From positions 1,992-65,991 of the forward strand of contig CAJVXH010000001.1 of assembly GCA_913009835.1 (NCBI GenBank): 64,000 nucleotides of DNA, given 5' to 3'. Position 1 is the stretch's first letter. Every line of letters starts with the position of its first letter. Shown here one piece after another: positions 17,359-54,809 of the stretch. A model generated the notes under the pieces. The model was given only the letters and a program-made list of their open reading frames with translations, was not told the origin of the DNA and searched no databases. This DNA comes from an uncultured bacterium. Its GTDB lineage: Bacteria; Electryoneota; Electryoneia; Electryoneales; Electryoneaceae. Made by a program: the position numbers and the translations under genes.

Positions 17359-17431
17359 GAGGATGTAGCTCAGTTGGTAGAGCAGGGGCCTTTTAAGCCC
17401 AAGGCCGAGGGTTCGAGTCCCTCCATCCTCA
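17359..17431 (+). tRNA. tRNA-Lys (anticodon TTT)
   Basis: Hand-folded cloverleaf: acceptor gaggatg/catcctc, D-stem gctc/gagc, anticodon loop cttttaa (TTT), T-arm gaggg-ttcgagt-ccctc, discriminator A. No encoded CCA. Confidence 0.85.
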
Positions 17432-17432
17432 C
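17386..17432 (+). repeat. attL core (3' part of tRNA-Lys) of the integrated island
   Basis: 47 bp from the anticodon stem to the tRNA 3' end is repeated, with 3 mismatches, at 54763-54809. Confidence 0.6.
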
Positions 17433-17442
17433 TTGAATATTA

Positions 17443-17479
17443 AGGACTTACGGTTACTCCGTGAGTCCTTTTTCTTTTC
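17443..17479 (+). terminator. Rho-independent terminator following tRNA-Lys
   Basis: 12-bp stem aaggacttacgg/ccgtgagtcctt (one G.U pair) followed by tttctttt. Confidence 0.55.
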
Positions 17480-17480
17480 A

Positions 17481-17503
17481 TGGCACACTAGTGGCACACT
17501 CAG
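17481..17503 (+). promoter_or_regulatory. Putative integrase arm-type binding site (2 x tggcacact), left end
   Basis: tggcacact-ag-tggcacact sits just inside attL. A near-identical 23-mer occurs just inside attR at 54631-54653. Confidence 0.4.
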
Positions 17504-17531
17504 CTTTTTTATTGTATATTGTTGGGAGTGA

Positions 17532-18629
17532 TTGTTACATGAGGTGACCATGGCAACGATACGCAAACGTACTACCAGAGACGGGTCTGTTTCCTACCAC
17601 GTTCAGATTCGGAAAAAGGGATTCCCCACCGAAACCACGTCCTTCTCCAATTTGACTCATGCCAAACGCTGGGCAAACCAAACTGAAACTGATATGGATG
17701 AAGGGCGTTACTTCAGAAACACTGAGGCGAAACGTCACACGGTCGAAGAAGCAATTGACCGATATCTGAAAGAAGTCCTTCCAAGGTATAAGGACCAAGC
17801 AAAACCATTGGTCCATTTGCGATTCTGGAAAGAGCGGATCGGGCACATGCTGCTGTCCGAACTGAAGACCGCAAAGGTTGTTCAGGAACGTGATCGTCTT
17901 CTTCGTGATGACAACCATCCAGGTGCAAAGATGAATCGTTCCTTCGGTCCTGCTACAGCGAACAGATACACCACCTCCCTCTCCCGTGTGCTGTCAGTAT
18001 GTGCTCGTGACTGGGGCTGGCTCGAGCAATCCCCGATGCGAGGCTTCAGGAAGCTGAAGGAAACACGTGGTCGTGTTCGCTATCTGTCCGATGATGAACG
18101 AGCTCGCATTCTGGCAGTTTGCCAAAGCAGTTCAAATCCCGACCTTTACCTTGCAGTCATACTCGCACTTTCAACCGGAGCTCGAAGAAGCGAACTGTGG
18201 AATCTCCGCTGGTCACAGATCGACTTGGCTGGTCAAAAAATCATCTTGGACGAAACAAAGAACGATGAGCGTCGCGTGCTTCCTATTTTTGGCAAGGCTC
18301 ATGAACTCCTGACCGAACGATCCATTACGCAACGCCGTCTTGATACCGATCTCCTCTTCCCTGGTCGAACAAATCCCAAGATTCCACAAGACCTCACTCA
18401 TCCATGGCAACGCGCTATCCAGGAAGCGAAAATCGTGGACTTTCGCTGGCACGACCTCCGCCACAGTGCAGCAAGCTACCTCGCCATGTCTGGAGCAACA
18501 CCTACTGATATCGCGGCAATCCTTGGTCACAAAACCTTGCAGATGGTCAAACGGTATGCACACCTCAGTGAACCACATACTGCAAGTGTGGTAGAGCGGA
18601 TGAACAAAAAATTTATGGGTGAATCGTGA
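17532..18629 (+). CDS. int: Tyrosine-type site-specific integrase
   Basis: 365 aa with a C-terminal catalytic region WHDLRHSAASYLAMSGATPTDIAAILGHKTLQMVKRYAHL (R..HxxR..Y pattern). The likely true start is MATIRKR at 17550. Confidence 0.9.
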   Translation: MLHEVTMATIRKRTTRDGSVSYHVQIRKKGFPTETTSFSNLTHAKRWANQTETDMDEGRYFRNTEAKRHTVEEAIDRYLKEVLPRYKDQAKPLVHLRFWKERIGHMLLSELKTAKVVQERDRLLRDDNHPGAKMNRSFGPATANRYTTSLSRVLSVCARDWGWLEQSPMRGFRKLKETRGRVRYLSDDERARILAVCQSSSNPDLYLAVILALSTGARRSELWNLRWSQIDLAGQKIILDETKNDERRVLPIFGKAHELLTERSITQRRLDTDLLFPGRTNPKIPQDLTHPWQRAIQEAKIVDFRWHDLRHSAASYLAMSGATPTDIAAILGHKTLQMVKRYAHLSEPHTASVVERMNKKFMGES

Positions 18630-19414
18630 ACGAAAAAGACACGGCAAGGCTCAAGGAAATTGAGAACAGCATCAATGAGCTCAAAAAACAACATTTAGAA
18701 ACAACCGATCCCAAAGAGAAATCAGATCTCGACTACGACATTTATCACCTTGATGTCGACAAACGTGCAATTCTAAGGGAACAGCCGAGAGATCTTGATT
18801 ATTGGCTTAATATGGATTCCTGGAAGCTGTGGGAAGCGCTTGAGTTGTTAATCGGAAGAACGCCAACATCAGAACAGAGAAGTAGTTTCAGAGAGAATTA
18901 TGATGAAGCAGAAGATCACTGGGTTATAGATTATGTGTATTTCACAAAAACAGATGGAATGTTCACAGAAGATATCTTGGATTTACTACATCGCGTTAAA
19001 ATAAGTAAATCAATTAAACTGATCGAAGAAAAGAAAGAGGAATCTCTATTAAGTGTTGTCAAACCGGTTGATTTTGTATTATGGGCATCAAGAAAGAAGA
19101 TACCAATCCCAGAGAAAATGATAGAAATAATGAGCGTAGACAAAGACGGGAATGAGCCAGAACCGCTCTCCGCAAAGGAAAAACGAGATCTAGGAACACT
19201 GAGACAGTTCAAAGAAAACAGGAAGGATATGATAAAAGCTGCTGTTCTAGCTACTCTTCTATGTATGGAGAAACCACAGGAGATTCCAAAGAATGATCTC
19301 AAACATATGCTTCAAGAAGAAGGATTAGATTTTACAAATGATGACTTTAATGAGATATGCAAATGTATTCCTAACAAGTTTAGAAAGGGTCCTGGTGCTC
19401 CGAAAAAGAAGTAA
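18626..19414 (+). CDS. Hypothetical protein (island)
   Basis: 262-aa ORF with a GTG start overlapping the int stop. Charged and coiled-coil rich, with no recognisable motif. Confidence 0.4.
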   Translation: MNEKDTARLKEIENSINELKKQHLETTDPKEKSDLDYDIYHLDVDKRAILREQPRDLDYWLNMDSWKLWEALELLIGRTPTSEQRSSFRENYDEAEDHWVIDYVYFTKTDGMFTEDILDLLHRVKISKSIKLIEEKKEESLLSVVKPVDFVLWASRKKIPIPEKMIEIMSVDKDGNEPEPLSAKEKRDLGTLRQFKENRKDMIKAAVLATLLCMEKPQEIPKNDLKHMLQEEGLDFTNDDFNEICKCIPNKFRKGPGAPKKK

Positions 19415-19540
19415 GTAAAACCCACCTAAACATTACCAATCCCAAGCCCAATAAGGTTTGGGATCTTTTTTTGCCATTTCCCACATCGTACAATTTCCAG
19501 CAAGATTCGACGGCACTCATCAACGAAAGAGGAGTTCAAA

Positions 19541-19750
19541 ATGGAAAGATCAAGGTTTTTGACCGTCAAGCAGGTTGTTGCTGAGGGATTATATCCCAAC
19601 GAAGGGGGATTGCGGTGGTTGGTTTTCAACAGTCGCAAGAACGGAATTGGTAAGGCGATTCGCAGAGTTGGTTCGCGAGTCCTGATCGATGAACTCGAGT
19701 TCCATCGATGGATGGCTAAACAAGCTGAGGAGCAGAACCATGAGAGTTGA
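19541..19750 (+). CDS. AlpA/excisionase-like helix-turn-helix protein
   Basis: 69 aa with LTVKQVVAEGL...RWLVF...RVGSRVLIDELEFHRWM, the pattern of phage AlpA/Xis-type HTH proteins. Located between int and the primase. Confidence 0.5.
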   Translation: MERSRFLTVKQVVAEGLYPNEGGLRWLVFNSRKNGIGKAIRRVGSRVLIDELEFHRWMAKQAEEQNHES

Positions 19751-20312
19751 TCCATACAGCAGATTTGTTCAAGCACTTAAATCGAGAGGTTTGCTCGTCT
19801 CAGAGAGAGATGGGAAGGGAACTGCTCGTTGTCCAGCACATGATGATCGGCATGCATCGCTTTCATTCTGTCGTGGTGATGACGGAAAACTACTCGTCAA
19901 ATGTCATGCTGGATGTGAGTTTGGAGACATCATGCACGCGTTAGGACTAGAACAAACTGATGCATTTATTGAGAACCTCAATGGAAATGCCCATCATAAT
20001 AGTACCGTGAATATCAAGAACAAGACCAAGCGCAAGAAAGTTGCGGAATACATCTATCGGGACGAACATGGCATAGAACAGGCACGGAAGGTCAGATTTT
20101 CCGATAAGTCATTCTCTTGGATACGAAACGGCAAGTGGGGCTTGAACGACTGGAAGCCACCGCTCTACAACCTTCACCTGTTGTACCAAGACAAAGACAG
20201 TCCCGTGTTGATGGTGGAAGGGGAAAAGGATGCCGACACACTCACACGTCTTGGATTCCTTGCTGTTTCGCCGCCAAACGGTGCGAGTATTAACCAGGTG
20301 TTAATAAAATGA
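19689..20312 (+). CDS. Primase N-terminal part: zinc-binding domain plus the first half of Toprim
   Basis: CPAHDDRHASLSF...VKCHAGCEFGDIMHALGL is a CHC2-like Zn finger. LMVEGEKDADTL is the Toprim catalytic Glu. An alternative start lies at 19740 (MRVDPYSRF). Confidence 0.6.
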   Translation: MNSSSIDGWLNKLRSRTMRVDPYSRFVQALKSRGLLVSERDGKGTARCPAHDDRHASLSFCRGDDGKLLVKCHAGCEFGDIMHALGLEQTDAFIENLNGNAHHNSTVNIKNKTKRKKVAEYIYRDEHGIEQARKVRFSDKSFSWIRNGKWGLNDWKPPLYNLHLLYQDKDSPVLMVEGEKDADTLTRLGFLAVSPPNGASINQVLIK

Positions 20313-22126
20313 AAGATGAGCATACAGCAGCGCTGAAAGGTCGAGAAGTATACGTCCTATGCGATAATGACGAGGCTGGATTCGCTCACCAGCTCTTGGT
20401 TGCTCATGCGCTTCATGGCAAGGCTGCACGAGTCTACACTGTGGAGCCGTTCGACACCCTTAAGGGCGAGGGTGGTGACGTAACTGACTGGGTTAATGAT
20501 CACGAACGAGAGGGGCGTGCGCAGAACGAGATCGCTGAGCTAATTGCCGAAACGTGTTCCCCACTCCACCGAGCTATCTTATTCGATCTGGAGAGCCCTC
20601 CACCATGGAGTATTGGATTGGATCAAAACACTCCGAAAACGTGTGACTTGTATGACAGTTCTTCTTGGGAGGAGCCGTTACCCCTGGACACCTTTGATCT
20701 CCGGGAATTGCCCGAAGACTTGCTCCCTCCTCCCCTTGGCCCAATGGTGTCAGCAGTCGCTCGATTCATAGAGGTTCCACCTGAGATACCCGCATTGACG
20801 ATATTTGCTATTGTCGCAACAGCGGTCCAAGGAAAGTATCGCGTTCAAATTCGCGAGGGACATCATGAAGAGCTGTCGATCTGGACAATGTCTCTCGCTG
20901 AATCAGGTGAACGAAAAACCCCAACTCTGGACCGACTTCGTATTCCATTGGATAAGTGGAAACACGATAGAGCGGCTAGTATTGCATCGACAATCCGGGA
21001 AGCAAAAGCCAAACGGGAATTGCAGGAACGTGCGATAAAGATCCTGAAGGAGCAAATTGAGATTGATGATCCTGATGAGCTTCAAGACGCAGCGTATAGG
21101 GTTGCAGATATGGAGGGTGCTCTCTCCACTATTCCGGTTCCACCTGAAATCTATTCGAACGACATTACTCCTGAGGAGTTGGTAGTCCGTATGGCGGAAA
21201 ACCATGGATGCATGGCCATAATCTCCGACGAGGCGGGCATGTTTGACACTTTGTCCGGACGATATGCTCAAAAAGGCGGTGTGAACCTTGATGCTGTGAA
21301 CTCGGGATGGAATGGCGGTAGAGTATCCAGTCATCGAAGATCTCGCGAGGCAATCCACATTGAACGTGCATACTTGTCATTTGCCCTGACCGTACAGCCT
21401 GATGCGGTTTCCGCAATGGCGGAAAAGGAACGTATGCGGTATCGAGGTTTCCTTCCCCGGTTCCTCTTTGTCATTCCACGGTCGAGAGTAGGATATCGAA
21501 CGAATACTGGACCAGCTATTCCATATTCCGTGCAATTAGAATATGAATCGACCATTCAGGCTCTGTTGGATATTGAACATTGCGATAGTGAGTCCGATGA
21601 AGATTATTCTGAATCCACTCCAAGAGAGTTGACCTTGTCGAAGCAGGCTTTCGCACTATTCCATGAGTTTTGGACGGAAATTGAAAAACAACTGCGAGAT
21701 GGCAACACCTTGGAAGGGATTCGGGAATGGGGAAACAAGTTCCCTGGCAACATTGCCCGGATAGCGGGTCTTCTCCATCTCTCTATATACGCCAAGAGCA
21801 CAATTCCATCCGAGATTGCTGCGTCCGAAATGAAGACCGCCATCAAATTCGGCAGCCTCCTCATCCCACACGCTTTAGCTGCCTTCAATCTTCTGGACGA
21901 ACCGGCACTTTATAAGAATGCCCGTTATCTACTCGGATGGATCAAACGCGAACGGTTAACCACATTCAAGACTCGAGATGCACAAAGGCGAAACCAGAGA
22001 CGATTTCGTCAGGCAACGCTTCAACCAGTTCTGAAAGAACTTGAGGAGCGAGGATACATCCGTAGTGGTGAAGCCGATGATCCCCGCGTCAAAATATGGG
22101 AGGTCAATCCTTGTTTGTTTTCCTGA
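20309..22126 (+). CDS. Primase C-terminal part: second half of Toprim (DxD) plus a DUF3987-like domain
   Basis: Begins with VYVLCDNDEAGFAHQ (Toprim DxD), followed by a large P4-alpha/DUF3987-like region. Overlaps the upstream ORF by 4 bp in a different frame. Confidence 0.6.
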   Translation: MKDEHTAALKGREVYVLCDNDEAGFAHQLLVAHALHGKAARVYTVEPFDTLKGEGGDVTDWVNDHEREGRAQNEIAELIAETCSPLHRAILFDLESPPPWSIGLDQNTPKTCDLYDSSSWEEPLPLDTFDLRELPEDLLPPPLGPMVSAVARFIEVPPEIPALTIFAIVATAVQGKYRVQIREGHHEELSIWTMSLAESGERKTPTLDRLRIPLDKWKHDRAASIASTIREAKAKRELQERAIKILKEQIEIDDPDELQDAAYRVADMEGALSTIPVPPEIYSNDITPEELVVRMAENHGCMAIISDEAGMFDTLSGRYAQKGGVNLDAVNSGWNGGRVSSHRRSREAIHIERAYLSFALTVQPDAVSAMAEKERMRYRGFLPRFLFVIPRSRVGYRTNTGPAIPYSVQLEYESTIQALLDIEHCDSESDEDYSESTPRELTLSKQAFALFHEFWTEIEKQLRDGNTLEGIREWGNKFPGNIARIAGLLHLSIYAKSTIPSEIAASEMKTAIKFGSLLIPHALAAFNLLDEPALYKNARYLLGWIKRERLTTFKTRDAQRRNQRRFRQATLQPVLKELEERGYIRSGEADDPRVKIWEVNPCLFS

Positions 22127-22207
22127 TAGAAAACGATCCGTCACACAAGTCACACGTTTTACAGTGTTTTACAATTATTCAAGCTGAATAAGGAGATCGC
22201 ATTAGTA

Positions 22208-22882
22208 GTGACACATTCACAAAGATTATTGGAGGATGTCATGCCAACCAGCAAGCGTCAGATCAAAGCAAACCGCGAGAACGCAAAGCGTTCCACCGGG
22301 CCAAGAACACCCAAAGGTAAGGCGGTAGTTCGGTTCAATGCAGTCACTCACGCCTTGACGGCGCTTTCTCCGTTTTTACCTGGGGAAAACGAGGAAGAGT
22401 TTCAACGCATACAGGATACGCTGATGAAGGAACACCAACCTGTTGGAGAATATGAAACACTTTTGGTTGAACGGTTTGCCCATAATATGTGGCGGCTTAG
22501 ACGAGTGCCTGTCATGACGGCTGCTGTGTTAGAGTATCAGCGGCTGAAAATTGAAGCTCAGGACTGGTATGAGGAGTCGCGGAAGTATGTCTGCGATACC
22601 TTAGGAGATCTTACAAAGGGGTTCAGTGAACATGTGACAAATCAACATGCCTACGACCATGCCATGCGAAAACATGAATCATGTCTTAAGCAGGCGCGGG
22701 AGGGAATTGCTGACATAGGTCGTCGAATCAGCTTGATCGTGAATGAAGGCGCATGTGACAAGCTGCAACGATATGAGGGTTGGCTAGAAAGAAGGGTCAT
22801 TAAATTGCGACATGAGCTGGATGACGTACAGACTCGCAGGAAAGAAACGGGGAAATATCAGGGTATGACTGGAGAAAACTGA
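22208..22882 (+). CDS. Hypothetical protein (island)
   Basis: 224-aa ORF with no recognisable motifs. Convergent with the STAND gene. Confidence 0.35.
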   Translation: MTHSQRLLEDVMPTSKRQIKANRENAKRSTGPRTPKGKAVVRFNAVTHALTALSPFLPGENEEEFQRIQDTLMKEHQPVGEYETLLVERFAHNMWRLRRVPVMTAAVLEYQRLKIEAQDWYEESRKYVCDTLGDLTKGFSEHVTNQHAYDHAMRKHESCLKQAREGIADIGRRISLIVNEGACDKLQRYEGWLERRVIKLRHELDDVQTRRKETGKYQGMTGEN

Positions 22883-22981
22883 AAATGGGTTTGTTTCGCA
22901 AAAGATGATTGTTGTCGTCCCTGATTTATCCAGCCAGCCTCAGAATGGAATCCGATTGAAGTAAGATTCTTACTCTGACCA

Positions 22982-25900
22982 TCATGAGAAAAGATGATCG
23001 GGATTCGAGGTCGAAATGATTTGTGTCGCACCCACAATGAAATAAACGGATTCTATCTTGGGATTCTCATAGCTGTGTTCCCGGGTGAACCATTTCAGTT
23101 CGCATATCCAGCAGAGTTTTGCATGATGCTGCTCTACGAACTTGTCTATCACATCTCGATTCAGTGTTAGAACACTCCCATGACGAAATGGCATGTCGGC
23201 AATCTGCTTATCTTCCAACCCTTCTGTCCAGTCATACCATTGCGCTAATGCGGAATCCTCAACTTTGTAGATGATTTGATCCTGTTGAACATCAATTTGA
23301 ACTGTAGATTCTGCCAGCTGAGGATGCAGACCTCGGATTCTATCATCTAGTCGCCATGCTTGCCACCTGGGAGATGTATTTGGCCATAGCTCCGCTGAAA
23401 TTGGGAGAAGACTCCATCCGCCAAGTTGGAGTAATCCCTTTGGCGAGATTGAATCATCATAGCTGCCTGCGAACCTGCAATCACCAACGGTTGGTCTCTG
23501 TAGACCATAGCGTTCCATCGCCCCGAAGATGGCTTCATCAGAAATCCTATCTGAATCTGTACACCATTGAAGAGCACCCATGATTGTTACCTGAAATATC
23601 GTTCCAGATTTTTCACCGAGCCTCCCCTTCGCATAGCCCAAATAACCTTGCTTGGTTTCTAGTTTTAGTTCGTCCAACGTTCTCGATATATCCCCCGGCA
23701 GAGTATCAACAATCACCCCGGAGTCTTTATCAACACTGGGCCACCAAGCTGGAGAGCGACGAGGTTCGAGGGAGATTAAACTCAGATCGGTAGGTAGAGT
23801 TTCAATCGCGAAATTTCGTGCAGTTTCATCATCTATTTGCTTTGACGTTCTGAGCCACGTCAATAATCGGAGATACCCACTGATTGCACTCTCGTTAATT
23901 TTGATCTCAAAAGAAACGATATGTTCTGAATCTTTCCGCCCGTAGTGGCTACTAGCACTAAAATCAACATCTGTACGTTCTACTACCTTATTTGTTTCGT
24001 ATGCCCATCTCTGGAATAGATCAGTTGGGATGTTTTTCATCATATGTCTTAGGTGTCCCCGGATGAATCCCGGGACGATTGGGTAATGCCGCTCCCAGGA
24101 TTTCGGAGGACTGAACCTCATAACCGTAGAATCATCATGTTCTATGGAAGCAAGCCTAGTTTTCTGACCATACAATTCAAACAGCAGGTAGTCAGACAAC
24201 ACGCTGTGATATTGAATAGCTGCAACCAAAGCATCATAGTCGGGTAGCTGCGCGCCGTACTTCTCTTTTGCAACCAGCAACGTAAACAAACCGGTCGCAA
24301 CCCTGGTTTCCATATCTTGCTCTGAAAACCAGCTAATGAAAAAGTTTATCACTGTTCCGTTCTGTTGCTCATCGCCCAGTAGTTTGGCGATCTCAACGAC
24401 AGCTCTTTCTCGAACCATACCTGAGGGAGCTATCAGTCTGGAAAACAGCACACTCAGCGCTGTATTGTCGCCTTGGACCGGATCGATGATCCATACAGAT
24501 GGAGGAAGTTTAAAGGGTGATACCAAACCATGAAGAGTTATCATAACTCCAGAAATAAAGTCAGATGCGCTTCTACTTTGGTTCATTTTACATAAAAAAC
24601 CTACTATGTACCGTATCTCTCTATGTATCCCAAAATATCTATAATAGTATGGCATATGATAAACTAGTTCCCTTAAAATATCTCTCCAATTATTGTTGTA
24701 GTGATTCTTAATGATATCGAGTACATTTAATATCTCTTCTAATCTTGTATTCCAAGAACTCAATATTTGTTCTTCTTTACAGCATTCAATGAATATGGGT
24801 AACGCTTGTTTACGACCATATTTGCGGACCTCAAGATCATATCGAATGAAACCTGGTTTAAAATACGATTTCGTCTTGGAATAGTTGTCAATTGCTTCGA
24901 TGATTTGCTCTGGATCGATTTGCGTTTCCCAATGGGAAACCCACGGTTTAAGCCTGTCTGCATCATTGTAGATATCAGCATCAGAGCATGCTTGAAAGTA
25001 TTCATTCAGTTTGAGTGGAGGAAAGTTCGCTGGATCGGGTGGTGACTTAGATGCTGAGCTGGATCGTTTTTCCTGCAACTCTTCATCACTCTTCTTGCTT
25101 ACCCTTACGCCATAGTATTCTTCCAACTGTTCCATGATGTGAGCGGCAGCTGTGTCACCTGAACTTGCTCGTTCCCTAAGCCAGTTCCAAGAATCCTCAT
25201 CTACGCATGTACAGCCGATGGCAGCATAGATTGGATCGCTGAAGTCAGCCATTTCAAGGATGTTCAGAAAGTGTCGTTCAGCCCTGTAATACTCTTCACC
25301 TTCGATGAAATACAGATAGTACGGTGCGACGAGTTCGGGGTACAACCTGCGCAGGCTTGATCCGTAGTTTAGGGGAAAGTGCCTGGTCTCTTTACCATCC
25401 GTGTACTCGTCTATGCTGTCGAGTACTGGTGCAAGCTCAACCAAAGTTGATCTAATGAACTGTGCGTCGAGTGTATTGCGGTTTTCCTCCAAGGACTCAA
25501 GAATGTCATGGATCAATATGTCCTTTCTGTGACCATGAACGATGCAGAAGTCGATGAATGACCTTAATGCGCTGGATGCATATTCGGTCTTCCCGTTGAT
25601 GGCGAACACTGATGATATTGTTGCGTAGTTATATGCACCATCTGTCGAAGCAAATTCCACATCAGTCGCGCAGAATTGATCTCTGTTCTCATACAACCAA
25701 TCGAGAGCTCTTTCGGAAAGCCAAGTGAGTCTCCTGTCTTGCAAAAGCACAAGAATATCAGTGATGAAGGAGTGGGGGGAATTTGTCAATTCTATCAGGT
25801 CTTGATCTGAAATCGTCAGTCTAGTACCAACGGTAGTTGAAATGAGCATGGAATCAAGAACGATACGTAGGAAGACTTTGCGGAATGATTTCCCGTACTC

Positions 25901-28924: not shown

Positions 28925-29057
28925 TGATCAATGAAGTTAACGGATTCTCGTTTGTACTCCAATTCTTAGCAGGACGGGAATCTCGCAGAACTGTAGGTAC
29001 GAATTACTTAATAGAGGGCTTTCTTCAAAGAAGACCAGGAATGAGGTGGATTGTCAA

Positions 29058-29312: not shown

Positions 29313-29565
29313 AGACCCATATCTATGCTATCTATGACTATAAGTCTACGGACTATAAGTCACACACTCCGTTGGATTGAATGCTATTGAAAGGGAACAA
29401 CGACCATGCTGGGAGGGCTACTGGAAGAAGCATCGATCATCCAATCTGAGTATGGGCATGAACTTATGGCGGATTAGAGACAACCCAGAATCGGTCACTC
29501 AGTTCGAGGTGGCTAGATCCTGTGTGAAACACATGCATCCAAAAGGGATGAGTAAAGGGGGTTCC

Positions 29566-38605: not shown

Positions 38606-38609
38606 TCAG

Positions 38610-38918: not shown

Positions 38919-38930
38919 TTTTGATCCTTT

Positions 38931-46781: not shown

Positions 46782-46794
46782 GGGGGGGGGAGGG
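46782..46794. repeat. Homopolymeric poly-G tract (G9-A-G3)
   Basis: ggggggggg a ggg in the intergenic region, about 300 bp upstream of the nuclease gene start and just downstream of the sugar cluster. Confidence 0.9.
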
Positions 46795-46847
46795 TTTGTC
46801 AGCTATTGGAAACTATATCGTACTAGAACTGATTATTAAATGACTAG

Positions 46848-47909
46848 TTAGATGTGTCCATAAAACAGTTCTCCAGCAGCTTGTGTTACCAATCTAGGGG
46901 TCCGCGGTACAAGCCAAAAGACAGCTTTTCTCAGTATCCTCCTAGTCCAAGCGCGTAAGCAAGGATCCGTCCCAGCGTAAATTTGCTGAAGCTGGATCTC
47001 CTCAGATCCCCAGCCCATCTTAAATTTACGCAATCCTTCGTTGATTGATCCCATACCAGTTCGCCCGAAGTCGAACGTTTCAAGTCCCATCGAACATCCG
47101 GTCTGCATCGCGTTCCAGAGCATCAGGTGATTTGGATGATACTTCCACAAATCTTTGTCTGACCCTGAATGCTTATAGCTCATTGTGCGATACGCTGTGA
47201 GTAAAACGCTCCCCGCCGCAAGCCGTCCACGATAATAAACTAGTTCAATAAAACCAGTTCGAGCTCCTTCTATCAAGCGAGTGTGAAGCTGCTCAAAATA
47301 GCGGCGTGGTGCGGGAACCGTGCCAAGTCGTTGGCGAGTCTCTATGTGCAGTCTATAATATTCCCTCATTGCTGCTGCATCAGTCCGATACTCAACTCGC
47401 AATTTCCGATTAGCTTGGGCTTTTTGAATGCGTCTCTGAACACTTTGCTTGTCGAATCTGGCGAAGACCTTGGCTTCGTCAGCCGAAAGGGAAGTGCGGT
47501 GCAAATAACCAGATGGTACGCAAGCTATGCCGGGCAGTGCCTGATAGCCTCCCCGAAGTTCTAACAAAGCAGGAGTCGCCAATTCCCGCGAGTTCAAGAT
47601 TCCTTTGAGCAGTACTGTGGAGTCTTGACGGCTCAAACATAGAGGTAGGCAATGGTCGCTGAACGGAAGCGAGACGACACGATTGCCGAAAACAGGATTT
47701 CTCAGTTCCAATATTGGAGCGACCGCGGAAAGAGCCCTTTGTCGCCAAACCGTGGCTAAAAATAGACGTCCACCATACACAGCACGGAGCAGTTCGCTCC
47801 AAACAGGATGGTGATAAATTGATGCTTCAGGGAAACCTGCTGCGAAACGGTTTAATTTCTCGGCCACGGCGGAGGTCCAGGGTAACAGATCGAACTCTGC
47901 GTCCATCAT
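46848..47909 (-). CDS. FemAB-like / GNAT-fold acyltransferase
   Basis: 353 aa. Overall resemblance to FemAB/BioF2-like acyl(amino)transferases; a weak call from its general pattern. Confidence 0.4.
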   Translation of the reverse strand: MMDAEFDLLPWTSAVAEKLNRFAAGFPEASIYHHPVWSELLRAVYGGRLFLATVWRQRALSAVAPILELRNPVFGNRVVSLPFSDHCLPLCLSRQDSTVLLKGILNSRELATPALLELRGGYQALPGIACVPSGYLHRTSLSADEAKVFARFDKQSVQRRIQKAQANRKLRVEYRTDAAAMREYYRLHIETRQRLGTVPAPRRYFEQLHTRLIEGARTGFIELVYYRGRLAAGSVLLTAYRTMSYKHSGSDKDLWKYHPNHLMLWNAMQTGCSMGLETFDFGRTGMGSINEGLRKFKMGWGSEEIQLQQIYAGTDPCLRAWTRRILRKAVFWLVPRTPRLVTQAAGELFYGHI

Positions 47910-47917
47910 TAAGTTCC

Positions 47918-48688
47918 TCAGTAGGCAATATGCGCAGGAAAAACTTGGAGCAGCTTGTCTGAGTCGATTTTATTGAACTTACGTGCATTCTTGGCATACC
48001 ATTTCCGCGCTTCGTCAAGCTCAGTCACTGTGAAACAACGGCCCTCTACACCGATACTTGAGAACCAGTCAAACCACTTGATCATCCCGCGCGTGTGCTT
48101 GTTCAGTATCCAAGCCCACGGCACTCCGTAAGCAAATGCAAGAATTGCGACATGCAAGGCTTCGGTGAACACAAAGTCTGTAGCCGAAATGTAGTCAATG
48201 ACTTGAAAGGGATCTTGGCGCGTAGTCACAATCTCAAGCCCATCTGAAAGAAGGGTAGGAGCGTTTTCATTCTCCCAATGGAGGAAATATCGGGACTTTT
48301 CCTGCGGAGCCTTTCTAGGGATATAGATCTTCGGCATGAGTACAGCCGGATCTCCTAAGGGAATGCCTTGAGGAAGCCCAAGTGCCACCCGTGTCACGTG
48401 TCCACGAACTGCGTAGACCGTCCAATCCATCCGGGTCCCAGGATTTGCCTTAGTGGCCGAATCCACATAACCTGGCTCGTAGCCCGTCCCCCAGATGTTC
48501 ATACGCCAATCGCCATAGTAACCAAGAAAACTGCCAAGTCCGCCAAGTACAGGTTTACCTATATGTTCAGGAGGTAATTCTTTGAAAACCGGGACGACCT
48601 CTAAGTCAAAGAGCTTCTCAGTGATTATCGGAGCCAATAAATCGCCCACATTAGGGATTCCGTTAACTATTTGAAGTATTTTAGTCAA
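47918..48688 (-). CDS. Hypothetical protein, possibly polysaccharide pyruvyl-transferase-like
   Basis: 256 aa with an N-terminal ILQIVNGIPNVGDLLAPII reminiscent of the PS pyruvyl transferase N-terminus. Weak. Confidence 0.3.
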   Translation of the reverse strand: MTKILQIVNGIPNVGDLLAPIITEKLFDLEVVPVFKELPPEHIGKPVLGGLGSFLGYYGDWRMNIWGTGYEPGYVDSATKANPGTRMDWTVYAVRGHVTRVALGLPQGIPLGDPAVLMPKIYIPRKAPQEKSRYFLHWENENAPTLLSDGLEIVTTRQDPFQVIDYISATDFVFTEALHVAILAFAYGVPWAWILNKHTRGMIKWFDWFSSIGVEGRCFTVTELDEARKWYAKNARKFNKIDSDKLLQVFPAHIAY

Positions 48689-49683
48689 GATTCTATCCTA
48701 CTGCTCGTATTCACACTGTATGCCGTTGATAGTCTTAAACCTCTCTGTCCTCGCACCAAACCTGCTAGATAGCAGCACCTCCTGAGAAGGTCCACGCATG
48801 GGAAAGCAAGTTTCTCAAACCATGATAGTCTACTATCATGCCAATAATCCCTACAACGAGCCATGAGACTTCGAGGTGACGACGGGGTCGGCAAGAATAA
48901 AAACTGAACAATATGAAATACAATTGGGAGTAGTCGTGGCTCCGGTAGGTCGAAGTCAGACAACTTTCGATCCCGTAAACGGGCATGAACCAACAGTCCT
49001 TCGCCGTTACGAGTCTGTTGAATGACAAATTCTTTGAAATTAATTCTATGGTTGTGGCTGGCGATAGCCTGTGGGCAGCTGCCGAGCATGAATCCCCTTT
49101 GCAACAACCGGTAGGATAGATCCGCATCCTCACCCCCACAACTATGAAAATAGTCGTCAAACAAAGTATCGAACAAGCCTACTAACTGGAGTGCGCTCTT
49201 ACGGAAACATGCGTTAGCTGTGATTACGGACTGAATACTATTGCCTATGCGGATGGGCCCCGACAGAAGACCTCGCCGACCCGCGTAAGCGGATAGGAGC
49301 TTTTTGTCTCCAATGCTCACCACTGTTCCCCCGGCGCCAGCAATCGCAGTGTTATCAGCAAAGAACTTGACGTACCTCTGCAACAGAGTCTGAGAAGCCA
49401 CACAATCATAATCGAACAGAACAATCAGCTCGCTTCTTGCTTGATTAATTCCCATGTTCCGCGTTCTGCAAACTCCTGTATGGGACTTTCTCATTATCCG
49501 CACTGGCCGCTGTCCCAGTTCGAGTATCGCCGCAGCTGATAAATACCCTCCGTCATCGACCACTATGACTTCATAGTCATCGGGATCAAGAGTCTGAATA
49601 CAGAGTGACGCCAAACATAGCCTTAGGAAATCTTCACGGCCATGAAATGGCACAACGACAGATATCTTAAATTTAGGCTCCAT
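48685..49683 (-). CDS. Family 2 glycosyltransferase
   Basis: 332 aa with N-terminal ISVVVPFHGREDFLRLCLASLCIQT...YEVIVVDDGG, the GT2 DxD region. Confidence 0.75.
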   Translation of the reverse strand: MEPKFKISVVVPFHGREDFLRLCLASLCIQTLDPDDYEVIVVDDGGYLSAAAILELGQRPVRIMRKSHTGVCRTRNMGINQARSELIVLFDYDCVASQTLLQRYVKFFADNTAIAGAGGTVVSIGDKKLLSAYAGRRGLLSGPIRIGNSIQSVITANACFRKSALQLVGLFDTLFDDYFHSCGGEDADLSYRLLQRGFMLGSCPQAIASHNHRINFKEFVIQQTRNGEGLLVHARLRDRKLSDFDLPEPRLLPIVFHIVQFLFLPTPSSPRSLMARCRDYWHDSRLSWFEKLAFPCVDLLRRCCYLAGLVRGQRGLRLSTAYSVNTSSRIES

Positions 49684-50570
49684 TACAGCTCACTAAGCAG
49701 TCTTTGGAGCTTGGCAAAGGCATTGTGCCGTAACAAACAGGATAAAGTATCAGTACGATATTCAGGATCTTCAGCTAACGCCGCGAACTCGTGCAGCGTC
49801 ATAGATACAACCCCCATAACTTCGCTGCTCTGGTATACCACGGAGGATGCTTGGGCTTCCGAAACAGGGACAACATAGTAAAATGTCCGCTCTTGATTGA
49901 AGAAGATTCTCTTTAGTTCCAGTCGGGGATGAATTGTTGCTGGTGGTAACCAGGGTAGTGCCAAATTCAACCGCTTGAGTGCTGTCTCTCTGGTTTTATT
50001 CGATAATACCTTCTCACGATCCAAGACTACAAACTCACCCCTCGGCCGATTCTGGTTGATCACTACAGTTCCTTCCGAACCCTCGTATGTCAGTGAATAG
50101 TAATAAAGAGGCCAGCCACGTAAGTTATCATGAAGGGCAACAAGCCTATCAGCGAGAATATTTACAGCTAGTTCTTCTACGCTCTCTCTCACCGCCGTCT
50201 GAAGTGGAAGCTCATCGATTCCAACATGCCCTCCAGCAGAGGGTCCATAGCGATTAGGGAAAGAGTGATCGCCCCCCGACCGGTGCTGGATGAGTAGGCG
50301 ACCATCCGGCAACATCAGGAAAACATCAGCTGTTTTGTGTATTATACCATAATGGTGAGCCCTCCCGATCTCGGTTGCCGGTCCGCATGTTATTCCGTAT
50401 GCATCACATGGGACTACCCATTCCTCTTCATCTTGTCTAGATAGGTTTTCAGCTCTGCTCGCAACTTGCACCCGCTCCCCATATTGGCGAATATCAAATT
50501 CATCTGTTTCAGATGTTTTGTCTAATCCAATTGAGATCAACTTAGTCCTCGCTATATGTACAATTGACAC
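49683..50570 (-). CDS. NUDIX-family hydrolase
   Basis: 295 aa with NUDIX box GGHVGIDELPLQTAVRESVEELAV (Gx5Ex7REUxEExGU). Confidence 0.65.
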   Translation of the reverse strand: MSIVHIARTKLISIGLDKTSETDEFDIRQYGERVQVASRAENLSRQDEEEWVVPCDAYGITCGPATEIGRAHHYGIIHKTADVFLMLPDGRLLIQHRSGGDHSFPNRYGPSAGGHVGIDELPLQTAVRESVEELAVNILADRLVALHDNLRGWPLYYYSLTYEGSEGTVVINQNRPRGEFVVLDREKVLSNKTRETALKRLNLALPWLPPATIHPRLELKRIFFNQERTFYYVVPVSEAQASSVVYQSSEVMGVVSMTLHEFAALAEDPEYRTDTLSCLLRHNAFAKLQRLLSEL

Positions 50571-51768
50571 CCCGTCGGATCAGTTCCGCCCTCGCTCGCA
50601 TACGGGTTACCTGCAGTCTATTAGTGGCTAGCATGCGTAGGGTTTCTTCACCAATAGCAGGATTCTTGATTACTTGGTCGCGAATGTTACGCCACTTATA
50701 TCCGGGTAGTCGCGCCAATTCATCTAACAGGTTCGCTGACGCAAAGGGATTGGCGCTCAGTGCAAAGAGTCTAACTCCAACTGGCAAATCTATACTACCT
50801 GCTAGAGTATCAAGTGCCGCTGATTGTGTCATAGCCAAAGCCAGTGCCCGTAACCATTTTGTGCCCGGTAATCTCAGTATCTTGAGTAGTTCTTTTTCGC
50901 TTAGATAGCACTGTTTCTCAAGACGCACCCGAAGCTCCTCGAAAATAGCAACAGTATCCGAGACGCTTGAAGCCGTGATCATCGCTATCAGTTCGTACCT
51001 TGCCTCAAGCACTCTAGTGAGAGTTTCCTTATCTAGACCGTGAACTTGGTACTGCACCTCTGCCCCTTTGGAGACAGCCAGAATAGCAGCCAGGCGTACG
51101 TCGTGTGAATCGGATACACCACATCTGCGTAGCATTCGAACGCCATCGAATAGGCGTACTGCGTCTCTCTGCCCTCCTGCAATATACTTATACTCCAACG
51201 ATGAGCCTGATGGCGTTCCCAAGTTACGGAAAACTTCATTCATCGCAGTCTCTTCAAGCACAAAGTCCCTAGTCCAACTTTGCCTGGCGGCGAAAATCTC
51301 GGCAAGTACCATTGAACCCGCAAGATATCGCCCGGTCGATGCAATGCGTTGGTCAATGACATCATCAGGTAGAAGAACTTTCCCATTGACATTGCATATC
51401 ACGACATCGGAGTTACCGAATCCAAGCCAGTCTAATGAGTCAATAATGAATTGTTTTAGTTTCGTGACTTTGATCGAGCTTGATCCGTCTTCCAAGATAA
51501 CTAAATCCAAATCACTACCAGGTTTAGCCGTGCCACGAGCCATAGAGCCGCTCATAAGCATTGCCACTGAGCCTTTCATCGCTGAAGTCGATGTGTACCA
51601 TTCAAAGAGCGATATACTCACCCAACGCAAGAAATCTGTGTATACCTGAAGGTATCCGTAGCCATCAAACCGACCAGACTTGAGGCTCGCCATTAGTTCA
51701 TCCTCAAGGCTTGATTTGACCTCCCATATCTCCGTAAGCAAGATATCATGGGTTTTTCTCATAAGCAC
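50542..51768 (-). CDS. Nucleotidyltransferase-domain protein (Pol-beta superfamily)
   Basis: 408 aa with GS...DLDLVIL, the nucleotidyltransferase motif GSMARGTAKPGSDLDLVILEDG. Confidence 0.5.
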   Translation of the reverse strand: MLMRKTHDILLTEIWEVKSSLEDELMASLKSGRFDGYGYLQVYTDFLRWVSISLFEWYTSTSAMKGSVAMLMSGSMARGTAKPGSDLDLVILEDGSSSIKVTKLKQFIIDSLDWLGFGNSDVVICNVNGKVLLPDDVIDQRIASTGRYLAGSMVLAEIFAARQSWTRDFVLEETAMNEVFRNLGTPSGSSLEYKYIAGGQRDAVRLFDGVRMLRRCGVSDSHDVRLAAILAVSKGAEVQYQVHGLDKETLTRVLEARYELIAMITASSVSDTVAIFEELRVRLEKQCYLSEKELLKILRLPGTKWLRALALAMTQSAALDTLAGSIDLPVGVRLFALSANPFASANLLDELARLPGYKWRNIRDQVIKNPAIGEETLRMLATNRLQVTRMRARAELIRRGVNCTYSED

Positions 51769-51839
51769 TCACATAGTTTCAGTCGATACGTAGAGTTTTT
51801 TGGCTTATGGCTTTCGATCAACAATCGCAAAATTCATGA

Positions 51840-52850
51840 CTATTTTGGACACGATGATGAGATGTAAGCATTACCTAAAACACTGCGACAAGCCTCCACA
51901 GACTCAAGAACCCTTACGGCTAGCCAACCATCTGATAACGGCTGTCGCCGCTCGCGAATGCATGACGCGAAATGCTCCAACTCCGTTGTCAGAGCGTCCG
52001 AATCCATCGGTATCGCTAACGACGATTGTCTATCCAAGACTTGCTTATTGTCATCATCTAATCCAATCAAGTATAATCCCTCATCCGAGCCTTCTGCCCG
52101 ATAAACCAAAGTTCCTGCCGTACCACGTACCACCAATTCGCGAATTTTCTCCGCGCCGTAGCAATCCACATGATGGGTCGACAGCAAGTTCCCATTGAAA
52201 CACAAAGACATTTTTGCCCTGGTACACCTATTCCATTCCGACGCAATTTCTCCAACTGCATTAATCCTTTCCGGCACCTTGCTACCTAACAGAAAATCAG
52301 AAATTGAAAAATCATGACTAACCAGATCTTGTAACACATCTACATTATGTCGAACTCCGCATGTGTTGATTCTAATATATTCCAAACTCCGAATCGAACC
52401 AATCTTCCCTGAATTTAGTATCGTACTAATTTCTAAGATGTAAGGGTTATAGAGATAGGTATAGTCAACACCCAATATTCGCCCATGAATCATTGCGTAC
52501 TTCACTAACTCTAATGCGTCAGTGCGCCTCGTTGTAAAAGGCTTTTCAACCAGCACGTCCTTTCCTGCTTCCATTGCATCCATGGCTATTCTCCGGTGAC
52601 TTGTTGGCGGAGTTGCAACAATAATGGCCTGAACCTCCTGCATTTCCAACAGTCTTCTGTAATCCATTTCTCCTACAGCACACGGATAGATTTCGCTAAT
52701 CTCTTTCAGGTTATTGGAGTCTGCATCACTGAAGCCAACCAGAATAACTCCTTTTGCCTTTGTTAAGCTTCTAAGTATGATCCTCCCCCAGTAGCCAACC
52801 CCCACGATTGCAATTCCGATGGGTTTTATCTTTCCGAGTAACATCACCAC
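51840..52850 (-). CDS. Gfo/Idh/MocA-family NAD(P)-dependent oxidoreductase
   Basis: 336 aa with N-terminal Rossmann IGIAIVGVGYWGRIIL and the EKP motif VLVEKPF. Confidence 0.8.
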   Translation of the reverse strand: MVMLLGKIKPIGIAIVGVGYWGRIILRSLTKAKGVILVGFSDADSNNLKEISEIYPCAVGEMDYRRLLEMQEVQAIIVATPPTSHRRIAMDAMEAGKDVLVEKPFTTRRTDALELVKYAMIHGRILGVDYTYLYNPYILEISTILNSGKIGSIRSLEYIRINTCGVRHNVDVLQDLVSHDFSISDFLLGSKVPERINAVGEIASEWNRCTRAKMSLCFNGNLLSTHHVDCYGAEKIRELVVRGTAGTLVYRAEGSDEGLYLIGLDDDNKQVLDRQSSLAIPMDSDALTTELEHFASCIRERRQPLSDGWLAVRVLESVEACRSVLGNAYISSSCPK

Positions 52851-53169
52851 CTCTTCGCTGTCCTTTAGCTGTCCTACAAAGGTAGAGGATCATCTTTTCC
52901 GTCCCGAGCTTGGTCAGACTCACAAAGACGTGACCTCTACACCGATCCAGGGACAATGTACCGCGACATCAATATTTGATTGTCTCGCGTCCAATCCCTT
53001 TTCGCCACGACAGCACTGTCATTATTTGATTTTGCTGTTTCTTTTTGCCAAGCTAATATCAGTCCTTAGCATCCTAGTAGGAACGCTTCTTCAGTCCGAA
53101 GTTGAAAATCTATGGTATAGGGAAATTATGCGGCGAACAGTTCCCCATGTGAGAAATGCTTCAAATGAA

Positions 53170-54294
53170 TTATCCACAAGTGGAGGAGATCACTTCGCGA
53201 ACTGTTGATATGATATTATCAATCTGTTTAGCGGTCAGTTCCGGAAAACAGGGCAATGAGAGAGTTTCTGCGGCATAGAGCTCCGCTTCGGGGAAATCGC
53301 CTTCTTTACCTTCTAAACAAGCGAAACCTGGATGTAAATGCATCGGTACCGGATAGTGTAGGTTGACATTGATGCCGAGTTGTTGCAACTCCGAAAATAC
53401 ACGGTCTCGTTGCTCGACCCGTATGGCGTAGACATGAAATATCGACTCTGACCCTGGGCCAGCTCCCAGTGAAGGCCGCTTAAGTTTGGGTACATTCGCA
53501 AAGCCTCCATCAAAAACCTTCGCGACTGAAATCCGTGCGTCATTCCATGTATCGAGATAAGGAAGTTTGACACGCAACAGAGCAGCTTGAACTTCGTCCA
53601 TTCGGGCGTTGATGCCAATGCGTACGTGCCGGAATTTCTCGATACTCCCATTGTTACGGTATTCGTGGCATAGTTGGGCTAAGGTATGGTCATTAGTGGC
53701 AATCGCCCCCGCTTCGCCCAAAGCACCAATATTCTTTCCAGGATAGAAGCTGAACGCTGCGATGGTACCTAAACTCCCTATTCGGCAACCTTTGTAACAC
53801 CCTCCCGGAGCATGAGCTCCATCTTCACAGATCCAAAGTCCGTGACGATCAGCAATTGAGTAGATGTTATCCATTTCCGCAGCATGACCTAGCATGTGCA
53901 CCGGCAAAATCCCCCTAGTTGCCGGTGTGATTGCCCGTTCCACCTGTTCGGGAGCTAGACAATACGAAATTGGATCGATATCAGCAAACACCGGTTTTGC
54001 GCCGGTTATCGCTACTGCTTCAGCTGTCGCATAAAACGTCATTGCAGGAACGATCACCTCATCACCGGGCTCAATACCCAACGCCAGCATCGATACGTGA
54101 AGAGCAGCAGTTCCACTGCCGACGCCTATCACGTGATTCACCCCGAGGTAATTGGCAAATTCTTTCTCAAAAGCGGCCACCTCGGGCCCGAGGACAAAAG
54201 ACGATCTTTCCAAGACGCGTTGGAACGCGGCAGTAAGTTCCTCTTTCAGCAAATCATGCTGGGCTCGGAGATTCAGAAATGGGATCTTCAACAT
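53170..54294 (-). CDS. DegT/DnrJ/EryC1/StrS-family PLP-dependent sugar aminotransferase
   Basis: 374 aa, with the family-typical N-terminus FLNLRAQHDLLKEELTAAFQRVLERSSFVLGPEVAAFEKEFANYLG and the PLP-lysine region. Confidence 0.85.
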   Translation of the reverse strand: MLKIPFLNLRAQHDLLKEELTAAFQRVLERSSFVLGPEVAAFEKEFANYLGVNHVIGVGSGTAALHVSMLALGIEPGDEVIVPAMTFYATAEAVAITGAKPVFADIDPISYCLAPEQVERAITPATRGILPVHMLGHAAEMDNIYSIADRHGLWICEDGAHAPGGCYKGCRIGSLGTIAAFSFYPGKNIGALGEAGAIATNDHTLAQLCHEYRNNGSIEKFRHVRIGINARMDEVQAALLRVKLPYLDTWNDARISVAKVFDGGFANVPKLKRPSLGAGPGSESIFHVYAIRVEQRDRVFSELQQLGINVNLHYPVPMHLHPGFACLEGKEGDFPEAELYAAETLSLPCFPELTAKQIDNIISTVREVISSTCG

Positions 54295-54630
54295 TGCTCC
54301 TTGTCTATTTTAAATGTGATCTAACAGAGTCTCCAGCGATTCATCGAAAATCGAGACTTGAAATGATTCAGGCTCATTCGATCCAATTCTCAACAGAAAT
54401 TACAACAACCGAAAATTACTGCAATTGTGACTAGATCCATACCCTGGCGACTTGTTTTTACTTCAATAAGATAATCCATTAGGGTCATTCTATTTCGAGT
54501 CACACTTTACTATAACCTCGGACACGAGTGAAAAGAGCTGTCTTCACACGCAGCGTTTGCTTCTATTGTTTCTCATTGAATGCTGAATAGCCTCGAGGCT
54601 AACGTCGCTTACGATCTAAAGCAGTTCCCA

Positions 54631-54653
54631 TGGCACACTGGTGGCACACTCAG
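54631..54653 (+). promoter_or_regulatory. Putative integrase arm-type binding site (2 x tggcacact), right end
   Basis: tggcacact-gg-tggcacact, identical apart from one spacer base to 17481-17503. Lies 110 bp inside attR. Confidence 0.4.
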
Positions 54654-54762
54654 TGCAATATATGGCAACAATTCCCAAACAACCAAAGGGCTTGGAAGAC
54701 AGGAATATCATTGTTATTATTATAGTTAGCTACTGTGACCTGTTGTCCACTATTGCCTATTC

Positions 54763-54809
54763 GGGTCTTTTAAGCCCAAGGCCGAGGGTTCAAGTCCCTC
54801 CATCCTCAC
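54763..54809 (+). repeat. attR: partial duplicate of the tRNA-Lys 3' end
   Basis: gggtcttttaagcccaaggccgagggttcaagtccctccatcctcac matches tRNA positions 28-73 with 3 mismatches. Confidence 0.6.

Follow-up and report, generated by a model that had tools for sequence, protein, structure and literature searches.

Evidence for a 37.4 kb genomic island at a tRNA-Lys gene

Here, we analysed 64,000 nucleotides of DNA from an uncultured bacterium of the lineage Electryoneota (contig CAJVXH010000001.1, positions 1,992 to 65,991 of the forward strand; this whole stretch is called the window below). We found that the window very probably holds a genomic island of 37.4 kb which was inserted by site-specific recombination at the 3′ end of the gene for tRNA-Lys(UUU), and which carries a cargo of candidate anti-phage genes. 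The island reading is supported by the repeats at both ends, by arm-type motifs that accompany these repeats, by nucleotide composition and by the differing gene content of related genomes at the same tRNA. Integration by a tyrosine integrase into the 3′ end of the tRNA-Lys gene is the part of this reading in which our confidence is high. The coordinates of all features are collected in Table 1.

The tRNA-Lys(UUU) gene is the single tRNA in the whole window, as judged by both ARAGORN and Rfam, and a scan of the whole window with Rfam returned nothing else. The gene is intact, in agreement with a preliminary description of this DNA. That description had also placed a second copy of the last 47 bp of the tRNA at the far end of the island, with three mismatches between the copies. 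The repeat is real and lies where it was said to lie; however, the mismatches are two and not three, with 45 of the 47 positions matching. One of them, C31>T, changes a C-G pair of the anticodon stem into a U-G pair, and the other, G57>A, keeps a purine in the T-loop. Since both differences are compatible with tRNA function, the attR copy looks like the displaced 3′ half of a real tRNA-Lys gene.

We searched the window with probes of 42 nt or 23 nt taken from the att core, allowing up to 3 mismatches. The probes hit two places only, with 0 hits expected from 100 shuffles, and no internal att remnant was found within the island at the same tolerance. In a degenerate form the repeat covers 89 nt at 81% identity, and this longer form includes the hairpins which follow each copy. 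Similar terminator hairpins after both copies had been noticed earlier, and a simple hairpin scan classed both as terminator-like; the one on the attR side is probably the original terminator of the tRNA gene.

Just inside each end of the island there is a 25-nt element, assigned to repeat family D9, which is made of two TGGCACACT units. Among the five occurrences of TGGCACAC in the 64 kb, four make up the two end pairs with their spacing of 11 bp. A related element at the same tRNA in another genome (locus L082, described below) carries G[TG]CACACTCAC twice, at a spacing and position equivalent to those of the left TGGCACACT pair of the window. We infer that the TGGCACACT pairs are putative arm-type binding sites of the integrase, which would lie at about +49 and -132 from the core in the excised attP. 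Because such a pair is present at both ends, the far right end of the island, beyond a cluster of sugar-modification genes, is tied to the recombination system of the left end.

A comparison of base composition and tetranucleotides with the flanks had been recommended in the preliminary description, and when it was run the island deviated in both. The island has a GC content of 0.453, against 0.518 for the left flank and 0.524 for the right. The strand-symmetrised tetranucleotide correlation with the pooled flanks, calculated for windows of 4 kb, is 0.23-0.68 inside the island and 0.72-0.87 for the flank windows. The blocks of the island also differ from one another in GC content, which ranges from 0.41 to 0.48 (0.41 for the TmtA-like gene, 0.43 for the STAND gene and 0.48 for the sugar cluster), and thus the cargo is a mosaic.

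The following mode of movement can be proposed. The tyrosine integrase adjoining attL would recombine the 47-nt cores, guided by the paired TGGCACACT arm sites on both sides, and a protein of 69 residues with an excisionase (Xis) fold would probably assist this recombination; the open reading frame (ORF) which overlaps the integrase gene would perhaps do so too. Our confidence in the guidance by arm sites and in the Xis role of the 69-residue protein is moderate. The excised circle would be replicated by a primase-helicase with Zn-finger, Toprim and DUF3987 regions, a step that is currently doubtful owing to a frameshift in the gene. The backbone would carry exchangeable cargo, which would shield the host from phages.

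Table 1. Features of the island and its ends, in window coordinates (aa, amino acids).
Feature	Position	Strand	Support or remark
tRNA-Lys(UUU), intact	17359-17432	+	ARAGORN; Rfam RF00005, 75.8 bits
attL core, 3′ 47 nt of the tRNA	17386-17432	+	Repeat family D4
Terminator-like hairpin and T-run after the tRNA	17442-17470	+	Simple hairpin scan
TGGCACACT motif pair, 11 bp apart, putative P′ arm sites	17481-17500	+	Family D9
Tyrosine integrase, 359 aa	17550-18629	+	PF00589 E 1.4e-30; phrog_1 E 1e-65
262-aa ORF	18626-19414	+	GTG start overlaps the integrase stop (GTGA, 18626-18629; stop 18627-18629)
69-aa winged-helix protein, MerR/excisionase (Xis) fold; putative recombination directionality factor or regulator	19541-19750	+	
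Primase N-terminal fragment: CHC2-like Zn-finger, Toprim Glu motif EGEKD	19740-20312	+	phrog_6088, phrog_239
Primase-helicase C-terminal fragment: Toprim DxD motif DNDEAG, DUF3987	20309-22126	+	PF13148 E 1.6e-90
224-aa ORF	22208-22882	+	No family match
1980-aa protein: N-terminal PD-(D/E)xK nuclease (Cap4/LmuA-like), STAND/NACHT-type NTPase, long C-terminus	22982-28924	-	
XRE-type HTH_3 regulator, 84 aa	29058-29312	-	Divergent from the 205-aa ORF
205-aa ORF	29377-29994	+	No family match
1406-aa sacsin/HATPase_c_3 ATPase, Tiamat TmtA-like	30339-34559	-	PADLOC TmtA; NF047352 P_loop_sacsin
HmaC, HEPN(Swt1)-DUF499 AAA+ ATPase	34640-37945	-	PADLOC E 1.5e-298, 991 bits; PF18731, PF04465
Two small ORFs (210 aa, 102 aa) between hmaB and hmaC	37973-38918	-	No family match
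HmaB, DUF1156 N6-adenine DNA methyltransferase	38931-41813	-	PADLOC 1483 bits; PF06634, PF02086
HmaA, Swi2/Snf2 helicase with C-terminal NOV_C PD-(D/E)xK nuclease	41810-45319	-	PADLOC 1566 bits; Pfam
PDC-S69 candidate defence protein: KilAC-like N-terminus, PD-(D/E)xK C-terminus	45537-46478	-	PADLOC E 7.7e-112; PF03374
Seven-gene amino-sugar modification cluster	46848-54294	-	Pfam, NCBIfam
TGGCACACT motif pair, 11 bp apart, putative P arm sites	54631-54650	+	113 bp before the attR core; family D9
attR core, displaced 3′ part of a tRNA-Lys gene	54763-54809	+	45/47 positions match attL
Terminator-like hairpin and T-run after attR	54823-54845	+	Simple hairpin scan

The integrase is followed by an overlapping ORF and a putative Xis-like protein

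The integrase which had been noted after the tRNA is clearly recognised by its Pfam match (Table 1). The distance from the tRNA to the start of its gene is 118 bp. In the protein the motifs R, HxxR and Y can be read, and no Pfam match was obtained for its N-terminal region. The protein is 72% identical to the integrase of L082. The 262-residue ORF that overlaps the integrase stop has no family match in our scans, Pfam and PHROGs among them (the PHROG scan covered 10 ORFs, all five unassigned ones included). It occupies the position of the gene called 'iolg' in PICMI satellites, a match of position only and not of sequence family, and it is non-homologous to the 239-residue ORF found at the equivalent position in L082.

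The small gene before the primase had been described as an AlpA-like Xis. An excisionase-like fold is indeed indicated by modelling; the AlpA family, however, is not supported, with a match to the helix-turn-helix (HTH) family HTH_17 that stays below threshold (E 0.05) and no match to AlpA PF05930. The protein nevertheless belongs to a real family, for which an exhaustive HMMER search gave 555 representatives at E <= 1e-3. Six of the 62 aligned members reach HTH_17 (E <= 0.01), and none of the 62 matches PF05930. An AlphaFold2 model built from this 62-member alignment has a pLDDT of 91.9, and its best folds in the PDB are those of BldC, Tn916 Xis, the Xis of mycobacteriophage Pukovnik and the excisionase RdfS, with TM-scores of 0.5-0.62. 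It seems reasonable, on the model, to call the protein an Xis-like winged helix. It is 54% identical to a Xis-like ORF in L082; this ORF, located at 9313-9615 of that locus between the integrase-overlapping ORF and an extra 91-residue ORF, was missed by the public gene calls.

A one-base frameshift interrupts the primase gene

The preliminary description mentioned a primase with Zn-finger, Toprim and DUF3987 regions. All three are present, but the gene is frameshifted into two ORFs which overlap as ATGA, and the split lies inside the Toprim region. The closest relative of this primase, P0002, is an intact protein of 791 residues; the first ORF aligns to its residues 1-174 and the second ORF to its residues 184-788. 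In a restoration test, one A added to the A4 run at 20306-20309 produced a primase ORF of 795 residues, and the restored protein and P0002 aligned over their full lengths, with a gap of one residue where the two ORFs meet. A small palindrome, ATTAACcaggtGTTAAT (20289-20305), adjoins this A4 run.

The split was also seen in DRDN01000665.1 (GCA_011043795.1), which is 100% identical to the window over 16042-24590. A Logan assembly of SRR7787007 is 100% identical as well, over 15701-19801, and stops short of the primase junction. The frameshift could mean that the gene was inactivated recently, that the site is one of slippage, or that the assemblies share an error. Because it interrupts the primase, this copy of the island is probably defective in replication, unless slippage allows the A4 run to be passed. 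Relatives of the primase in IMG/VR are only 23-40% identical.

The same tRNA-Lys gene is followed by different genes in related genomes

We compared the locus with those of genomes related by purA, the gene which precedes the tRNA. The host belongs to the FCB group and bears the label 'Bacteroidetes bacterium' in GenBank; its purA relatives carry the names Calditrichota or KSB1. Among the matches listed for GTDB species representatives, the best purA proteins were 59-60% identical and showed no tRNA synteny, and those listed for metagenome contigs did not exceed 60% either; the closer relatives came from a large protein collection. The left flank of the island, with the order DinG, gcvP, secDF, purA and tRNA-Lys, is kept in the loci L082, L168, L191/L192 and L193.

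In L082 (ENA, contig of 4.54 Mb; purA 86% identical), the integrase and the 239-residue overlapping ORF are followed by the Xis-like ORF, the 91-residue ORF and an intact primase, which is a single ORF of 791 residues about 40% identical to the primase of the window. After the primase there is a Type I restriction-modification (R-M) system, accompanied by a T5orf172/CSD gene and a DUF4238 gene. L168 (JGI, contig of 803 kb; purA 88%) has no integrase, and its tRNA-Lys is followed first by a Type ISP R-M gene and a PLD-Snf2 helicase, and further on by genes for molybdopterin oxidoreductase. The tRNA and terminator of L168 are 93% identical to those of the window up to position 17478, exactly where the first arm motif begins, and no second att copy was found in the 10 kb covered. 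Unrelated genes follow the tRNA in L191/L192 (purA 75%) and in L193 (purA 78%), with a serine recombinase 7 kb away in the latter.

No tyrosine integrase adjoins the tRNA in L168, L191/L192 or L193, and no homologues of the island cargo were found in any of the loci, that of L082 included. The preliminary description held that relatives with the same content but without the repeats would speak against an island; in the loci examined, not a single cargo gene is shared. Judged from these comparisons, the tRNA-Lys locus behaves as a hotspot, at which one conserved backbone would carry different defence cassettes.

Candidate defence modules in the cargo

The cargo had been summarised as two large defence loci, a standalone nuclease and a sugar-modification cluster. 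This is broadly right, but at least four defence modules can be distinguished with PADLOC. One of them is an Hma system, which, to judge from its genes, is complete in one locus. Hma has been classed as a type-1 DUF499-centred BREX-related, R-M-like system (PMC12839542), and a homologue of HmaA restricts T4 through a nickase domain (PMC11232893). The locus agrees with the described type-1 systems in having all three core genes, which reach very high PADLOC scores (PMC12839542, PMC11232893). It differs from them in the two small ORFs between hmaB and hmaC and in the Tiamat-like TmtA gene which comes after hmaC. This gene is transcribed in the direction of hmaC, from which 80 nt separate it, and its product is matched by nine TmtA models (lowest E 4.5e-52 and 2e-49, where the 2e-49 match spans residues 43-916). 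Both the TmtA-like gene and the ORFs of 210 and 102 residues may serve this variant of Hma as accessories.

The 1980-residue protein has matches to AAA_16, NPHP3_N and NACHT in Pfam, and to the Avs1b (6e-15), Effector endonuclease (3e-14) and LmuA (2.5e-8) models of PADLOC. Its predicted architecture is Avs-like, with a nuclease effector at the N-terminus, a central STAND NTPase and a long C-terminal region. In contrast to the Avs proteins proper, the similarity is limited to the weak and partial Avs1b match, which covers the NTPase only (residues 273-622), and no sensor specificity can be deduced. The C-terminal 1350 residues have no family assignment, and a PDB sequence search with the N-terminus found no close solved structure. 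Between the STAND and TmtA-like genes, the HTH_3 regulator and the 205-residue ORF may form a small regulated or toxin-antitoxin-like module. The palindrome GACTATAAGTC, which is operator-like, occurs twice between these two genes, 15 bp apart, at 29336-29361.

The fourth module is the PDC-S69 candidate defence protein. PDB sequence searches with this protein, with the TmtA-like protein and with the 69-residue protein gave no informative match. Anti-phage function is ascribed to the cargo with moderate confidence, by homology to families that are validated (HmaA, PMC11232893) or candidates.

The sugar cluster encodes a FemAB/GNAT protein, a pyruvyl-transferase-like protein, a GT2 glycosyltransferase, a NUDIX protein, a nucleotidyltransferase, a GFO/IDH/MocA 3-dehydrogenase-like protein and a DegT aminotransferase. 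The NCBIfam scores of the cluster are all under the curated cut-offs, and its seven genes include no flippase or polymerase. The cluster probably alters a surface glycan, as an accessory modification, and this change could in turn alter a phage receptor.

The backbone resembles that of PICMI satellites

The layout of integrase, alpA and primase had been said to mirror that of P4-like satellites. As a statement of membership this does not hold. The genes which define the P4-like satellites of Enterobacterales are psu-delta-sid, alpA, epsilon, alpha and int, and the median size of these elements is 10 kb, with fewer than 2% reaching 15-22 kb (PMC10085698). The island shares with them the tRNA site, the integrase located at one end, a small HTH gene, a primase-helicase replicase and defence cargo (PMC10085698, PMC8628076). 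It differs in that neither a psu-delta-sid operon nor epsilon was found, in the DUF3987 helicase, in an integrase whose N-terminal region has no Pfam match and in being 3-4 times larger. In the scanned ORFs, no psu, delta or sid was found with Pfam, PHROGs or NCBIfam, and no P4 record appeared among the best 15 of the 86 phage records matching the primase at E <= 1e-5. P4-like membership was rejected on these missing genes, on the lack of PF05930, on the type of helicase and on the 37.4 kb between the att cores.

A prophage was rejected too, with no structural, terminase or lysis match among the ORFs (Pfam; PHROGs on 10 ORFs); the absence of phage structural genes had been noted before, and the large ORFs are all otherwise assigned. 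A conjugative or mobilisable element was rejected likewise, with no relaxase, type IV secretion system or coupling-protein domain in any ORF (Pfam).

By gene order, the closest described layout is that of the PICMI (phage-inducible chromosomal minimalist islands) of Vibrionaceae. PICMI are minimal, the prototype having six genes; they are inserted next to fis, and have proven helper phages and accessory defence genes (PMC10803314). In their core, int is followed by an overlapping gene needed for excision, by alpA, in some cases by a further gene, and by a DUF3987 primase; the markers used for them are int, alpA (PF05930 or PF12728) and a DUF3987/DUF5906 primase, colocalised (PMC10803314). In the island the core order is the same: int, an ORF with a 4-nt overlap at the int stop, the gene for a small HTH protein and a DUF3987 primase, after which defence genes come. 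As in PICMI, the int-overlapping ORF is of a different family in related elements, here the window and L082. On the other hand, the island extends over 37.4 kb, sits at a tRNA-Lys gene after purA and not at fis, has a frameshifted primase and has no known helper phage. Moreover, its 69-residue protein remains below the AlpA and HTH_17 thresholds, whereas the alpA of PICMI reaches the Pfam markers, and its host belongs to another phylum-level lineage.

The CP4-57-type islands of E. coli have the order intA-alpA-yfjI. Like the island, they are located at a tRNA-like gene and combine an integrase with a small HTH gene and a YfjI/DUF3987 protein; they differ from it in cargo, in host and in a very low sequence similarity, the YfjI family protein of E. 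coli being a distant match of the primase (E 9e-11). We thus describe the element as a defence island integrated at a tRNA gene, the backbone of which is PICMI-like, and do not file it as a satellite.

Alternative explanations and the right border of the island

Several points weigh against a 37.4 kb island integrated by site-specific recombination. The 2.3 kb to the right of attR (54810-57150) are also foreign in composition, with a GC content of 0.427 and a tetranucleotide correlation of 0.30. No empty site with the right flank of the window directly after the tRNA was found, and the right-flank genes, from an S8 peptidase to a POT transporter, are not beside tRNA-Lys in the closest relatives. 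The assignment of the Xis protein rests on fold similarity, and all its Foldseek E-values are above 0.3. The split primase and the fact that no excised form was detected leave the present-day mobility of the island in doubt, and the other assemblies with the island may share the same or related read sets with the source of the window.

The right border was followed in some detail. An exact-match scan of metagenome contigs for attB, that is the 3′ end of the tRNA joined to the right flank, gave 0 matches, and exact look-ups of the response regulator-HD (RR-HD) and DegT proteins, made for contigs spanning attR, gave no record. Relatives whose POT is 89-91% identical keep the right-flank block in synteny (POT, SNase, two unknown genes and S8 peptidase, in some cases also RR-HD), but there the block is followed by a 990-residue protein of the type IX secretion system and not by tRNA-Lys. 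In the JGI contig Ga0675941_000027 (loci L083 and L168), the block lies about 55 kb from the tRNA-Lys gene, on the other side of purA; therefore, the island is at a rearrangement or synteny breakpoint. This breakpoint, the anomaly extending 2.3 kb past attR, the primase frameshift and the Tiamat-like gene appended to the Hma locus had all been overlooked in the preliminary description. The stretch 54810-57150 may be what remains of an older insertion, or a variable gene that evolves fast. It contains an ORF of 128 residues (55230-55616) and the RR-HD protein (55822-56964), which is 42% identical to its counterpart in locus L084, with neighbouring genes 68-80% identical at the DNA level.

It is unlikely that the island is a phage satellite of the PICMI or P4 kind, in which a helper phage would induce the small HTH protein, excision, replication and packaging would follow, and the cargo would act against competing phages. 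The arrangement of integrase, overlapping ORF, HTH/Xis-like gene and DUF3987 primase does fit the PICMI core (PMC10803314), no conjugation, relaxase or structural genes were detected in the Pfam and PHROG scans, L082 has the same backbone with other defence cargo, and satellites are known defence hotspots (PMC10085698). However, capsid-remodelling genes, terS and pac/cos features were no more detected than psu, delta and sid, and the authors of SatelliteFinder regard the trio of int, alpA and primase alone ('Type C PICI') as non-diagnostic (PMC10085698). The frameshift in the primase also speaks against a satellite, and so do the sub-threshold HTH scores of the 69-residue protein and the lack of a known helper; in PICMI, deletion of prim abolishes transfer (PMC10803314). 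A more far-reaching form of this idea, which we hold to be quite improbable, is that the island and its L082 relative represent an undescribed family of large PICMI-like satellites, which would move defence cassettes of 10-30 kb from cell to cell inside helper capsids, and in which the primase frameshift could be a slippage switch of replication competence. In such a family the conserved backbone would always land in the purA-linked tRNA-Lys gene of a Calditrichota/KSB1-like FCB lineage.

The tRNA-Lys gene could also be a hotspot which turns over mainly by homologous recombination or accretion; the integrase module would then be one of several passengers, and at no time would the whole 37.4 kb have travelled together. 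The gene content after the tRNA differs in every relative examined, L168 carries defence genes (Type ISP R-M and the PLD-Snf2 helicase) without an integrase, the GC content of the island changes from block to block, and the anomaly continues past attR at a site which is a synteny breakpoint. We nevertheless consider such turnover very improbable: a cognate pair of arm-type motifs stands at both extremities, beside both cores, and the identity of 45 of the 47 core positions implies a fairly recent single integration. The presence of one integrase and the lack of an internal att remnant argue both against this explanation and against the tandem accretion of two islands. A misassembly at the right junction, by which the contig would be a chimera joined at a repeated sequence with a false right flank, is very unlikely. 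The window does come from a metagenome-assembled contig, the right-flank genes are beside tRNA-Lys in no relative, and a copy of a host intergenic repeat (family D3) lies 170 bp right of attR, with another just left of the tRNA. Yet integration predicts exactly such an attR, followed by a diverged terminator, and attR is located to the left of that repeat copy; a host-specific repeat on both sides argues for one genome for both flanks, which are alike in GC content and tetranucleotide signature. Besides, a chimera would leave the attL/attR evidence for the island intact. Site-specific integration of the island as one unit remains the reading which we prefer.

With its clear borders, the island illustrates how anti-phage systems move about in an uncultured lineage of which few genomes have been sampled. 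One integrase/primase backbone and one tRNA-Lys target are associated with Hma, Tiamat-like, STAND and PDC-S69 modules here, versus a Type I R-M system in L082. This makes the locus of use for catalogues of defence hotspots and for following PICMI-like modules beyond the Vibrionaceae. Current ideas are left unchanged by it: tRNA-integrated defence islands with int/alpA/primase modules are common, and each cargo module falls in a described or candidate family.

Repeats in the flanks

The host intergenic repeat mentioned above is best seen upstream of the DinG-like helicase gene, where a 79-bp unit is present in about 6.4 copies of 97% identity in the intergenic region 6753-7463 (6825-7332 according to Tandem Repeats Finder). 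The unit contains GTCATCCTGAACGAAGTGAAGGATCTC and the hairpin CCCAGACATAAATGTCTGGG, and has no Rfam match. Diverged single copies of its 5′ part occur at 17160-17234, to the left of the tRNA-Lys gene, and at 54978-55019, to the right of attR. It is probably a host-specific intergenic repeat or a small mobile repeat. The spacer between purA and the tRNA in L168 (11300-11470) holds a tandem array of another kind, made of units of about 20 nt, CACCTTTGAAAGTGTGTTGGT, which are unrelated to the 79-bp repeat of the window.

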